DNA of 54,034 nt from Candidatus Aenigmatarchaeota archaeon (GTDB lineage: Archaea > Aenigmatarchaeota > Aenigmatarchaeia > QMZP01 > QMZT01), in assembly GCA_041489155.1 (NCBI GenBank), contig JBGPQP010000008.1, positions 1-54,034 on the forward strand, in the 5' to 3' direction. How positions within the stretch are numbered: the stretch's first letter is position 1; each line of letters opens with the position of its first letter. Position numbers: made by a program. Positions 33,001 through 36,000 of this stretch are shown here, in pieces.

Positions 33001-36000
33001 CAGCAGATAGAAGGCGGACGAAATCCCGAACCTGTCGATGAAAAAGCCCGGTATCAGGAAGCCTATTATCCAGCCAAGGCTTGACAGGCCGTTGAACATG
33101 CCGACCTTATTGTCCGGCTCATTCTTGACGAACCTCAGCGAGTAGATGAATATCGTGACGAACATGAGGGCGCTTGCTATGCCGGAGATTATCTTGAGAA
33201 TGGTTATGAGGAGTATGTCTGTCGTCTGGCCTATCATGAAAAGGCAAACGATGAACACCAGCCCGCCGATGAGGAGGAATACGCGCTCGCCGTGCCTGTC
33301 GGTAAGATGGCCCAGTAAAGGCTTGGCTATGAACGAGAACACGTCGCCTATCGAGAGCAGGAAGGCGAACATGATTATCGAGATGTTCAGCGACGAGAAA
33401 TACATCGTGGGTATGAGCATCGCGAAGGCCATGAACAGCGTCTGGAAAAAGCCGAACAGCGCTCCAGACATCAGGCGGGATTTCGTCTCCTTGTTCTCCA
33501 TACTTCCACCGATCCATCGAAAATTATTTTGTTATTTTGTCGCGAGGTATATATTAGGTTTTAGCGCAAAAATGAGTAGAAACTCCTAATATAAATAAAA
33601 TTTTCAATTACTAACCATGTTCGAGTTCGAAAGGGACTTCGAGATGGAGTTGAGCTCCAGTACGGTCAAGAAGAGAAGCAATAAATTCGCACTTCTCTGG
33701 AAGATTACTTACAGCGGGAGCGTAAGCTCGTCGCCCGTCTTTCATAAAAACCTTGTCCTGTTCGGTGCAGGCGACTATTATTTCTACGCCCTCGACAGCG
33801 AGAACGGGGAATGCGTCTGGAGATTCAAGACCGGCGGCACCATTGTCGATCTTAAATCTCCGGTTGTAGGCGATAAGGTTTATTTCGGCTCATATGACGG
33901 TCATCTCTACTGCCTGAACGCGGAAACAGGGAAAGAGGTATGGAGGTTCAAGACAGGAGGGGAGGTATACGGATCACCTTCCGTTTCCGAGGGGGTGGTA
34001 TACTTCGGCTCCAGAGACTCATATGTTTACGCCGTTGATGCGCAAACGGGAAAGGAAATCTGGAGATTCAAGGCCGGAGCGGAAATAGCCTCCTGTCCCC
34101 TCATCAAGGACGGCCTAGTTTACATTGGCTCCTATGACGATTATTTCTACGCTATAAACAGGGAAGACGGGAGCGAAGCATGGAGGCTGAGGTTAGGTGG
34201 GAACATATCAAACCCGCTTCCGTTTCAGGTTGACGAAAAAGTGGCATACGTCGGCTGCGTGGACGGGAATGTTTATGCCATAGATCTGAAGGCTGGTAAG
34301 GAGTTGTGGAGATTCAGGACCGGGAGCTGGGTTCTGGCTTCCCCGAGACCTCACGAAGGCAAGGTGTATTTCGTTTCGAGCGACGGGAACTTTTATTGTA
34401 TAGACAAGGAAGGCAACGAGATCTGGAGGTTCAGGACCGATGCCTACATGGACGGTTCTACCGACGCTCTGATAAAGGACGGTAAGATATAATTATGGTT
34501 CATCAAACGGGAATTTGTTTGCCCTCGACTTGCGGACGGGGAGGGAAGTCTGGAGATTCAAGACCGAGGGAGAAATAATAAGCTCCCCTGCGATAAAGGG
34601 CAACAAAATATACTTCGGCTCTTGGGACTGCAATTTTTACTGCATTGATTCCGCCACGGCTAAGGAGATATGGAGGTTCCACACGAGCTCGAGCATAAAG
34701 GCCAGGACGCCTCCTGCGTCCGAATGGTTTGAGTTCGAGGTTGAGATTTCTAAAGAAGAGGTCGAAGAAATCAAAAAGGAATACGGCAAAGGCGTGAACG
34801 TCTCAGAAACCGAAGCGATAGAAAGCGATTACGCGATAAAAAGCGAGTACCAGTTCAAAAGCGAATATCACACGAAATCAGAATACAGATGAGTGCTTAT
34901 CTTCATCTCTTTTTACCGTTCCTTTTCCTGCCGTTTTTCCTACCTTTTCTTTTACTGCTCCTTTTCCTGCTGACTTTTACGCGCTTCCTGAGCTTCTCGA
35001 GCAGCGATTCCCTCTCTTCAGAAACCGCCTTCGCCGCGCCTATCGCCGTCGCGAACTCAGCCCTCTTCGGGACATAAGCTTTGCCCCCGAAAGTCTTGAC
35101 GGTCCTCTCGAGGTTTCTCATGAGCGTCCTGTTCTTAGTGACCTTGCCTATGAAGACGATTTCCTTCTCGAGCCCGTGATTTTTAGCCGCGAACGTCGAA
35201 AGTGTCCCCACGACCTCGCCGACCATAGTGAGAAGGCCGAGGGCTATGTCCTTCGCTGCCGTGTCATCGCGCAGCTTGCCGAAATTCGCGGCAGTCGCGC
35301 CTGCAGAAAGGTTCCCTATGCCCCTGCCCACGATATCCTTCACCGTGAGATTGATCTTGTCCAGGTCGCCGTTCTTCGCGATCAGCTCGAGATTGTTGAT
35401 GTCGTCCTTGTTAAGAAGCAGCTTGAAAAGCCCTTTCAGCGTGCCGCCGCCGACGCCCGTCCCGCCGACGTGCCTGATTACTTTGCCGTTGTCCGTGACG
35501 GAAACCATCGCCGTCCCCGTGCCTATGCTGACCACGAGGCACTTCTTTTTCTTCGTGAGCGTCAGGCCGCCGAGGCCCATTGCCTTTATCTCGCCGACCT
35601 TTTTCACGGGTATGCCGAGCAGCGTCCTGCCGAGCTTCCTAGAGCCGCCGCCTGTGGCAGCGACGTATTTTATCTGGTTCACTCTGATTTTGCTGTCGCT
35701 TAGTATTTTTCCCAGGCATCCCGCGGCGCTTGCCAGCTCGTCGCTCGCATGTATCGAGACGTGGCCGGTTATTTTTCCGTTCTTCAGCAGCACGCCCTGC
35801 GTGGCCGAGCCGCCTATGTCGATCCCTATAATCATACTTATAATTCACCATTCTCCTTTTAAAAAGGCTTTTCTGCCCCGGAGAAAGCTATCTCGGTCCT
35901 ACTTTCAGAACGGGCACTTGCCGACGTTGCCGTCGCATTTCACTTCTTTCTTTATCTTGTCGCAGAACCTCTTTTCTCCCAGGAACCACTGGCAGGCGGT

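Follow-up and report, generated by a model that had tools for sequence, protein, structure and literature searches.

How does an archaeon make coenzyme A (CoA) when the usual archaeal genes for it are not found in its genome? The question is raised by a locus from a small sediment archaeon of the Aenigmarchaeota (DPANN), where a homologue of the eukaryote-like type II pantothenate kinase (PanK-II, CoaW-like, Fumble family) is encoded. The canonical archaeal route runs through PoK, PPS, CoaBC, phosphopantetheine adenylyltransferase (PPAT) and the DUF359 type of DPCK (PMC6650551). The host genome contains HMG-CoA reductase (381 bits) and a mevalonate cluster, so the cell needs CoA. The initial annotation of the locus proposed pantetheine salvage, with the kinase acting on imported pantetheine and PPAT and DPCK completing CoA; every testable element of this interpretation held, and it is supported overall.

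The window analyzed here is the whole 54,034-nucleotide stretch of contig JBGPQP010000008.1; Rfam and tRNA scans across it gave no matches. The host genome is 89.65% complete and lies in 39 contigs. Comparisons were made within a family set of 23 genomes, a phylum sample of 251 Aenigmarchaeota genomes and a second-phylum sample of 301 Thermoproteota genomes, and 14 genomes, including four archaea, served as controls in the Fumble and DFP searches.

Table 1. Genes of the window bearing on CoA synthesis and pantetheine import
Feature	Length (aa)	Position	Strand	Evidence
Type II pantothenate kinase homologue (PanK-II/CoaW-like)	310	34903..35835	-	ATG start; profiles, alignment, AlphaFold2 fold
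Archaeal phosphopantetheine adenylyltransferase (PPAT)	161	24562..25047	-	NF001985, 148 bits (cut-off 104)
Second PPAT-like paralogue	165	24016..24513	-	NF001985, 99.2 bits, just below cut-off 104
OPT-family transporter, candidate importer of pantetheine or pantetheine disulfide	538	37228..38844	-	Pfam OPT, 229.5 bits
MFS transporter, syntenic with the kinase in genera g1 and g5	380	32359..33501	-	Pfam MFS_1, 125 bits

A type II pantothenate kinase homologue of an uncharacterized subfamily

The reading frame annotated as a 310-aa Fumble/PanK-II homologue is real and is homologous to PanK-II over its whole length, which profiles, alignment and fold support. Pfam Fumble (PF03630; E = 1.5e-26, 93.8 bits, cut-off 28.5) matches residues 99-267 and covers only positions 149-331 of the 334 in the model, a partial match that had been a worry in the initial annotation. 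The worry is resolved by the NCBIfam model NF009842 (“type II pantothenate kinase”), of which positions 3-274 of 277 align with residues 1-273 (206.2 bits, below the equivalog cut-off of 234). Moreover, in a profile of 44 family sequences, positions 1-266 align with residues 1-263 of Staphylococcus aureus PanK-II (E = 2.3e-36). The AlphaFold2 model (pLDDT 95.1, pTM 0.89) has a predicted ASKHA fold most similar to experimental PanK-II structures: its top PDB match in Foldseek is S. aureus PanK-II (TM 0.81-0.85, target-normalized; 26-28% identity), followed by yeast CAB1 and human PANK1-3, and ranks 1 to 42 among the matches listed are all PanK-II of these three sources. Residues from about 272 to 310 form a K/R-rich tail, which is present in all five members of the genus and absent from other genera.

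Residues D6, E82, G105, G107, T108 and H122 are invariant across the 44 aligned homologues. E82 aligns with the catalytic E70 of S. aureus, and the catalytic Glu and the PHOSPHATE 1 and 2 motifs (D6, G105-T108) are all conserved. In contrast, the substrate-positioning Arg of characterized PanK-II is replaced: H122 aligns with S. aureus R113, the second Arg of “RRVGG”, which would be the equivalent of R207 in human PANK3. In the latter enzyme R207 is the Arg that positions the substrate and E138 is the catalytic Glu (PMC8366970, also for the other residue roles in PanK-II). The His is invariant in all 44 homologues and in 13 further archaeal proteins, and its replacement of the Arg places the kinase in an uncharacterized PanK-II subfamily. 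We considered H122 as a pocket mark separating clades with CoaBC from clades without it, and rejected this because the His is invariant in both.

By the accounts given in excerpts of PMC12570885, PMC11487621 and PMC12406275, pantetheine is phosphorylated by PanKs of types I and II and not by type III, and, in the same parts of PMC12570885 and PMC12406275, the S. aureus type takes both pantetheine and pantothenamides. The kinase class present here, as judged by sequence and fold, is the pantetheine-accepting type II; type III PanK was not found in the host or in genomes G018, G020, G033 and G062. The protein could instead be an ASKHA kinase for some other substrate, such as a peptide-like cargo of OPT, or an inactive paralogue outside CoA synthesis. 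The loss of the substrate Arg and the NF009842 score below the equivalog cut-off would fit such a role, as would the type II homologue of Bacillus anthracis, described as catalytically inactive in the relevant part of PMC8366970. We nevertheless regard it as quite improbable, given the invariant catalytic Glu and phosphate motifs and, as set out below, an orthologue in a coaBC-pan operon, PPAT genes near the kinase in Bathyarchaeia, strong co-occurrence with PPAT and DPCK, and exclusion with CoaBC.

The last two steps are present and the earlier ones are not found

PPAT and an archaeal DPCK, both reported in the initial annotation, are indeed encoded. Two PPAT-type genes lie in tandem (Table 1), an arrangement also seen in G020, G021 and G013. 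The DPCK (DUF359, 115.5 bits), which is fused with a Fap7/adenylate-kinase-like domain, is located outside the window on a separate contig (C9, 50201-50560).

The reported lack of CoaBC and PPS was also reproduced. DFP (PF04127), the CoaBC domain, has no match at E ≤ 1 in the host genome, 89.65% complete as it is, and PPS_PS has no match there either. PoK, whose absence had earlier been judged from tables, was searched for directly: the pantoate-kinase model (cut-off 380) gives no more than 22 bits among the three GHMP kinases of the host, which are two HddA-like sugar kinases and a mevalonate kinase. Thus, profile searches find the canonical PoK and PPS route absent from the host genome. A lone Flavoprotein-family match was considered as CoaC and rejected, as it is UbiX (250 bits) within the archaeal mevalonate-pathway cluster.

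It might be argued that CoaBC, and with it PoK and PPS, is present but missed because of the incomplete assembly in 39 contigs or because of strong divergence. However, DFP is found in none of the 23 family genomes, among them genomes assembled in 4, 7 and 10 contigs, and is detected in all 14 controls, as had been reported; the absence throughout the family means that assembly gaps are no explanation. The same model also recovers strong CoaBC in four other Aenigmarchaeota, the only such genomes among the 251 of the phylum sample, and DFP in 182 of the 301 Thermoproteota. A missed CoaBC is therefore very improbable. With PoK, PPS and CoaBC gone, pantothenate itself would not be usable by the host.

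The kinase is coupled with transporter genes in several lineages

The OPT gene listed in Table 1 is the single one in the host genome in a purpose-built HMM search. It shares its strand with the kinase, from which it is separated by 1392 bp on the upstream side and by an opposite-strand ORF, so the two do not form one operon in the host. In 19 of the 24 PanK-II-positive Aenigmarchaeota the OPT gene precedes the kinase in the same orientation, frequently overlapping it, and the two are adjacent in all eight f3 genomes, in G246 and in 10 of 14 f1 genomes. The gaps are 0-4 bp in seven of the f3 genomes; in the eighth, G084, the kinase ORF as called extended too far and ran into OPT. This 830-aa ORF was considered as an OPT-kinase fusion and rejected as an ORF-calling artefact, since OPT lies in another frame. 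The adjacency recurs in Hadarchaeota (2/2), one “Thermococci” MAG and three Bacillota MAGs, and none of five kinase-less family genomes yielded OPT. At L013 and L014 the gene directly downstream of the kinase, in the same orientation, encodes an MFS protein, and at L022 and L027 an MFS gene is close by; the MFS transporter of the host is an alternative candidate importer, a weaker one that we rank below OPT.

A different membrane protein, ECF S-component-like, adjoins the kinase in all 17 Thermoproteota-type loci, and five Thermoproteota genomes show only weak OPT matches (16-39 bits), none beside the kinase. PPAT is two genes from the kinase in three Bathyarchaeia loci. In one relative, G062, the orthologue closes an overlapping operon, coaBC-panE-panB-panD-panC-PanK.

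The G062 operon has two sides. It shows that a member of the clade can occupy a pantothenate context, which counts against the salvage reading and agrees with a true pantothenate kinase whose product, 4'-phosphopantothenate, is turned into 4'-phosphopantetheine by unrecognized enzymes other than PPCS and PPCDC. The finding that G062 has no type III PanK, and the vitamin carriers among the family of the neighboring ECF S-component, point the same way. Such a pathway would, however, require a two-step route of no known kind in every kinase-positive, DFP-negative genome, 40 from Thermoproteota and 23 from Aenigmarchaeota, and conserved candidate genes beside the kinase were not found; we consider it unlikely. 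At the same time, the operon ties the clade to CoA synthesis, and together with the transporter neighbors at almost every archaeal locus and the exclusion of CoaBC in a second phylum it strengthens, and supports, the reading of pantetheine salvage.

Distribution and co-occurrence

As first reported, Fumble is found in 14 of the 23 family genomes, in all five of the genus (host included) and in none of the 14 controls. The description of this family as one that archaea normally lack is partly right; it needs to be narrowed, because 39 archaeal sequences from several phyla group as one clade and 40 of the 301 Thermoproteota carry the gene. In the phylum sample the kinase occurs in 24 genomes and is absent from 227. 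By raw counts, in which kinship is ignored, DUF359 is present in 20 of the 24 kinase-positive genomes versus 46 of the 227 others, and PPAT above the cut-off in 20 of 24 versus 16 of 227. In the Thermoproteota sample, again by raw counts irrespective of kinship, 40 genomes have Fumble, 182 have DFP and none has both; in one whole class of 17 genomes, Fumble is found in 16 and DFP in none.

It was predicted that kinases linked with OPT would occur without CoaBC and unlinked ones with it, and this was wrong on both sides: DFP is missing from each of the five Thermoproteota-type genomes with an unlinked kinase, and of five genomes outside Aenigmarchaeota with an OPT-linked one, three (the “Thermococci” MAG and two Bacillota) keep DFP/PPCS. 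The OPT-kinase pairs in PPCS-keeping genomes count against the salvage reading.

The family genera g7, g8 and g10 have PPAT and/or DUF359 and lack both the kinase and OPT. Phosphorylation of imported pantetheine was thus too strongly described as the only closed route, for PPAT and DPCK are also kept by family members that lack this kinase, and the lineage must have another entry, such as 4'-phosphopantetheine uptake. These genera, and the 227 phylum-sample genomes without the kinase, lend some weight to an accessory role, in which precursors taken from a host or the surroundings, namely 4'-phosphopantetheine, dephospho-CoA or CoA, are the main entry and the kinase merely recycles pantetheine from turnover; yeast Opt1, according to the portions of PMC12406275 on its cargo, imports 4'-phosphopantetheine too. 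Against this stand the tight and often overlapping transporter-kinase pairs in several unrelated lineages, which speak for an imported compound that has to be phosphorylated, and we give the accessory role only a low probability.

A proposed route to CoA

The host probably makes CoA from pantetheine or its disulfide imported by OPT, through phosphorylation by PanK-II followed by PPAT and DPCK. Pantetheine, pantethine or a mixed pantetheine disulfide would enter, most likely through the neighboring OPT, and an imported disulfide would be reduced if needed. The kinase would then phosphorylate pantetheine at the 4' position, PPAT would adenylylate the phosphorylated product, and the DUF359-type, GTP-dependent DPCK on contig C9 would phosphorylate the last intermediate to CoA. 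What the analysis shows directly is which genes are present or absent, the family and fold of the kinase, its conserved catalytic residues, the gene neighborhoods and the co-occurrence; the kinase substrate, the transporter cargo and the flux are inferred.

A wider reading is tentative, and we put it at slightly below even chances: the His-type PanK-II clade may be a dedicated pantetheine kinase that, together with importers, replaces PoK, PPS and CoaBC in several archaeal phyla. Its importers would be OPT in Aenigmarchaeota, Hadarchaeota and some Bacillota, and ECF S-component-like proteins in Bathyarchaeia, Korarchaeia and relatives of Nitrososphaeria. If true, lineages with the transporter-kinase module would be obligate pantetheine auxotrophs, and the absence of PoK and PPS noted in Korarchaeota, Bathyarchaeota and nano-sized archaea (PMC6650551) would be accounted for.

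Comparison with known systems

S. aureus PanK-II (CoaW/SaPanK-II; PDB 2ews, 4m7x and 4nb4) shares the ASKHA fold, length, catalytic Glu and phosphate-binding motifs with the kinase, whereas identity is only 26-28% and its Arg113 corresponds to His122 here and clade-wide. S. aureus feeds pantothenate into a pathway that includes CoaBC; the host has no CoaBC, and its kinase is paired with a transporter.

The combination of a kinase, PPAT and DPCK with CoaBC missing or bypassed has also been described for bacteria, as the Apn variant, or pantetheine shunt, of Rodionov et al. (2019) and as the CoaA bypass in Escherichia coli and Bacillus subtilis (excerpts of PMC6593275 and PMC11487621, respectively). 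In the parts of PMC6593275 that treat it, the shunt is proposed for 91 gut bacteria without CoaBC, it concerns bacteria only, with CoaX in most listed cases, and its transporters are called unknown; sheet B5 of supplementary Table_2 lists just CoaW, CoaD and CoaE for three Prevotella genomes. The archaeal pattern differs in that PPAT and DPCK of the host are the archaeal, non-homologous forms, candidate importers are linked with the kinase, and whole archaeal lineages are involved.

In yeast, Opt1, an OPT-family protein, takes up pantetheine as a glutathione mixed disulfide, and with the type II PanK Cab1 it turns external pantetheine into CoA, bypassing PPCS and PPCDC (Wedman et al. 2025, PMC12406275, in the sections on uptake). 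The same sections describe unlinked Opt1 and Cab1 genes and state that no orthologues of Opt1 are apparent beyond yeast, whereas the archaeal OPT is a distant prokaryotic member with a candidate cargo and is genomically coupled to the kinase.

Among archaea, the host shares the last two enzyme families with the canonical route (PMC6650551) and differs from it in the lack of PoK, PPS and CoaBC, in PanK-II at the entry and in the DPCK domain fusion. Picrophilus torridus (Thermoplasmatales) likewise has a PanK in place of PoK/PPS, but that enzyme is described as near bacterial PanK, in a pathway resembling the one of bacteria and eukaryotes (PMC7883664, PMC6650551), whereas the host kinase is of type II and CoaBC is missing.

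Significance

A pantetheine shunt had been proposed for bacteria before, and pantetheine import by yeast Opt1 was known; an archaeal variant with candidate importers is new. In the literature on pantetheine use in archaea and DPANN, CoA in Aenigmarchaeota, archaeal type II PanK, pantetheine kinases and the OPT family in relation to pantetheine, we found no account of this system. Korarchaeota, Bathyarchaeota and Nanoarchaeota are named as exceptions to PoK/PPS in PMC6650551, and the mechanism of prokaryotic pantetheine import is called unknown in the relevant passages of PMC6593275 and PMC12570885. A transporter-coupled type II PanK in CoaBC-less genomes offers one testable answer to both questions. 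It would extend to prokaryotes the link between OPT and pantetheine, which was shown just in 2025 and in yeast alone, and it marks the His-type PanK-II subfamily as worth a study of substrate preference. It also predicts that the uncultured archaea concerned, DPANN as well as free-living Thermoproteota, depend on pantetheine from the community, which would matter for the design of cultivation media and for cross-feeding models.

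Identity and Active Site of the Kinase

The 310-aa kinase homolog of genome G000 (1.13 Mb in 39 contigs, estimated completeness 89.65%) matches the Pfam type II pantothenate kinase (PanK-II) model Fumble (PF03630) with 93.8 bits, at model positions 149–331 only, and the NCBIfam model NF009842 (“type II pantothenate kinase”) at full length (residues 1–273 to model positions 3–274 of 277) with 206 bits, under the equivalog cut-off of 234. A profile of 44 kinase homologs aligns with S. aureus PanK-II end to end (E = 2.3e-36), and S. aureus PanK-II is also the structure nearest to the AlphaFold2 model (pLDDT 95.1; TM 0.81–0.85), followed by yeast CAB1 and human PANK1-3. 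In alignments to S. aureus PanK-II, E82 corresponds to the catalytic E70, G105-T108 to its GTGT, and H122 occupies the position of R113, the second Arg of “RRVGG”. Because D6, E82, G105, G107, T108, and H122 are invariant across the 44 archaeal and bacterial homologs, the catalytic machinery is intact, but the kinase belongs to a His-type PanK-II subfamily, for which we found no characterized member. R113 is presumably the equivalent of human PANK3 R207. In human PANK3, Glu138 is catalytic and Arg207 positions the substrate; the B. anthracis type II homolog is described as inactive (PMC8366970).

The C-terminal ~38 residues form a Lys/Arg-rich tail after a conserved “ASLIEKLRK” stretch. The tail is found in all five members of the genus and is missing from all other genera; AlphaFold models residues 259–305 as one long helix, tail included, with pLDDT dropping to 65–87.

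Features of contig C8 of G000 (the window) and of loci elsewhere (coordinates along the named contig or fetched locus)
Feature	Location	Positions	Strand	Remark
Type II PanK homolog	C8	34903–35835	-	310-aa ORF
Lys/Arg-rich kinase tail	C8	34903–35020	-
PPAT	C8	24562–25047	-	148 bits
Tandem PPAT-like paralog	C8	24016–24513	-	99 bits, just under family cut-off
NMNAT	C8	23538–24029	+
Nucleotidyltransferase cluster	C8	23538–25047		NMNAT and tandem PPAT-like pair
OPT transporter	C8	37228–38844	-	Sole OPT gene of G000 (HMM)
ORF between OPT and kinase	C8	36200–36937	+	245 aa
PQQ-like ORF pair	C8	33617–34892		291 and 125 aa, consecutive, same strand
Single gene of a relative	L022	6939–8267		443 aa; position corresponds to the PQQ-like pair
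Long ORF	C8	3225–13640	+	One open reading frame, 3471 aa
Nup98-96 autopeptidase S59-type match	C8	81–1832	+	583 aa; 28.3 bits (cut-off 28.4)
DUF359 DPCK	G000:C9	49412–50575		= L002:712–1875, outside the window
coaBC-pan-PanK-II operon	L101 (G062:C4)	6652–11449	-	Complete, bacterial-type
CoaE	G008:C7	141593–142138
CoaE	G009:C13	16056–16607
Vut_1 “putative vitamin uptake transporter”	L026 (G005)	7279–7920		170 bits

The PQQ-like pair, both members of which match beta-propeller families, may be one gene split by a stop or frameshift. The borderline S59-type match is unusual for an archaeon.

CoA Pathway Genes

HMG-CoA reductase is present in G000 (381 bits), and the cell therefore needs CoA. DFP (PF04127, the PPCS/CoaBC model) has no match in G000 at E ≤ 1, and the phosphopantothenate synthetase model PPS_PS has none. 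The sole Flavoprotein-family gene was ruled out as CoaC because it matches UbiX (TIGR00421, 250 bits) and sits in an archaeal mevalonate cluster, together with mevalonate kinase, UbiD, both AcnX subunits, isopentenyl-phosphate kinase, and a PF01070 FMN-dependent dehydrogenase-family protein that is probably the type 2 IPP isomerase. None of the three GHMP kinases of G000 (two HddA-like sugar kinases and mevalonate kinase) is a pantoate kinase (PoK), and a search for type III PanK in G000, G018, G020, G033, and G062 found none. The PPAT tandem of G000 is shared with G020, G021, and G013, and its second copy may act on another substrate. The DUF359 DPCK carries a fused Fap7/adenylate-kinase-like P-loop domain at its N terminus (PRK03839, 142 bits), and ORFs of 330–398 aa with DUF359 recur across f1, the family of G000, and family f3. 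PPAT and DUF359 matches share one open frame in genomes of several other families (G062, G098, G082, G230, G063, and G057), which suggests a PPAT-DPCK fusion.

Mutual Exclusion of the Kinase and CoaBC

The counts of the initial annotation were reproduced: Fumble matches 14 of the 23 family genomes and none of the 14 controls; DFP matches none of the 23 and all 14 controls. In a phylum sample of 251 genomes, a strong DFP match occurs in only four (G062, G169, G196, and G230), and DFP is missing in 23 of the 24 kinase-positive genomes. DUF359 was found in 66 of the 251 (20/24 kinase-positive vs. 46/227 others) and PPAT over the cut-off in 36 (20/24 vs. 16/227). DFP was likewise not found in the kinase-carrying genomes of two Hadarchaeota, two “Bathyarchaeia”, and one each of Korarchaeota-type, Thaumarchaeota, and Nitrososphaeria; it is present in the genomes of one “Thermococci” MAG and two Bacillota that carry the kinase. 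One class of 17 genomes has Fumble in 16 and DFP in none, and among 301 sampled genomes of its phylum, Thermoproteota, 40 have Fumble, 182 DFP, none both, and 79 neither (P = 7e-19, Fisher’s test, which ignores relatedness). Lack of CoaBC characterizes the lineage and has a parallel outside the phylum. Without PPCS/PPCDC, a kinase making phosphopantothenate would serve no purpose; CoaBC-less genomes need one making phosphopantetheine.

The kinase is also linked to CoA genes in relatives. The Aenigmarchaeote G062, from another family, has it at the end of an operon of overlapping genes, coaBC (397 bits)-panE-panB-panD-panC-PanK-II, and three Bathyarchaeia loci have PPAT (175–187 bits) two genes from the kinase.

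Phylogeny and Transporter Neighbors

A midpoint-rooted tree was built with FastTree (LG+gamma) from 139 kinase sequences (42 archaeal, 97 bacterial), not including G014 (partial), G084 (mis-called), repeat fetches, and some 30 bacterial loci from a second scan. Thirty-nine archaeal kinases form one clade (support 0.925). f1 without its genus g6 is monophyletic (0.998), and f3 groups with g6 (1.0); G062 and G246 sit together on a deep branch of their own, and the “Thermococci” kinase is nested in bacteria (support of 0.994 for the group of both). A recent one-off transfer of the gene is therefore ruled out.

An HMM made from OPT sequences of this analysis identified exactly one oligopeptide-type (OPT) transporter gene in G000. 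The gene has the same orientation as the kinase and starts the pair, 1392 bp upstream; the one ORF in the interval is on the opposite strand and matches nucleoside-diphosphate kinase only below threshold (22.9 bits against a cut-off of 27). Other genes fill this spot in relatives, for example one resembling CPDase/2'-5' RNA ligase in L022 and L014. Among the 24 kinase-positive Aenigmarchaeota, a same-strand OPT gene is upstream of the kinase in all eight f3 genomes (gaps of 0–4 bp in seven; in G084 the called kinase ORF overlapped OPT), in G246 (17 bp), and in 10 of 14 f1 genomes (8 to 2262 bp); the kinase contigs of G017, G016, G002, and G004 are only 1.8–6 kb, with little or no upstream sequence to show OPT. 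In G062, the pan operon takes the place of OPT. OPT was found in none of five family genomes lacking the kinase. The pair recurs in two Hadarchaeota (46–50 bp), the “Thermococci” MAG (5 bp), and three Bacillota MAGs (49–72 bp), the latter being the only 3 of 129 fetched bacterial loci (five of the 129 being repeat fetches) to have it. On the kinase tree, OPT linkage appears in at least five separate clades.

The kinase of all 17 Thermoproteota-type loci is adjoined (gap ≤220 bp) not by OPT but by a conserved protein of 176–337 aa, with four to nine membrane-spanning segments in a hydrophobic-stretch scan of nine of these loci; it reaches the Pfam cut-off of an ECF S-component family in eight of the 17, the rest having weaker or no match. 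Such an arrangement, with two unrelated transporter families beside one kinase, classically marks an uptake-and-trap salvage module. In G005 (genus g4), which also has the upstream OPT, the Vut_1 gene follows the kinase on the same strand after ~490 bp and one small intervening ORF. Among the Thermoproteota-type loci (L115–L159), L123 has a NUDIX hydrolase directly downstream of the kinase, with a homolog (34% identity) in the same place in L146, and L159 has a thioredoxin-disulfide reductase there; possible roles are CoA pyrophosphatase and disulfide reduction, respectively.

Pantetheine Salvage as a Proposed Route to CoA

Type I and II PanKs are known to phosphorylate pantetheine, and type III to be incapable of it (PMC12570885, PMC11487621, PMC12406275). 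A “pantetheine shunt” was proposed for 91 gut bacteria without CoaBC, with the transporters called unknown (Rodionov et al. 2019; PMC6593275), and three Prevotella rows in its supplementary Table_2 have CoaW, CoaD, and CoaE only. Yeast Opt1 takes up pantetheine and 4'-phosphopantetheine, each as a mixed disulfide with glutathione, and, according to the authors, seemingly has no orthologs outside yeast (Wedman et al. 2025; PMC12406275). Nanoarchaeota, Korarchaeota, and Bathyarchaeota are listed among the archaea without PoK and PPS (PMC6650551), and our full-text literature search found no paper on archaeal type II PanK or pantetheine salvage.

The salvage of pantetheine through PanK-II, PPAT, and DPCK without CoaBC, as initially annotated, is supported, and the underlying observation is confirmed. 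We consider it likely, and the best of the mechanisms, that pantetheine or its disulfide would be imported, that the kinase would phosphorylate pantetheine at 4', and that PPAT and then DPCK would complete CoA. The weak points of this reading are the His-for-Arg change and the occurrence of PPAT and DPCK in relatives lacking the kinase and OPT: G010–G013 and G022 (f1; genera g7, g8, and g10) retain PPAT and/or DUF359 but have no PanK-II, OPT, or CoaBC. Genus g6 has the OPT-kinase pair without DUF359 or a strong archaeal PPAT, and instead bears a bacterial-type CoaE inside ORFs of 384–411 aa.

The pantetheine-salvage route is already known as an idea. What is new is the route in archaea, with archaeal downstream enzymes, the mutual exclusion of the kinase and CoaBC over two phyla, and two candidate importers, OPT and the ECF S-component-like protein.
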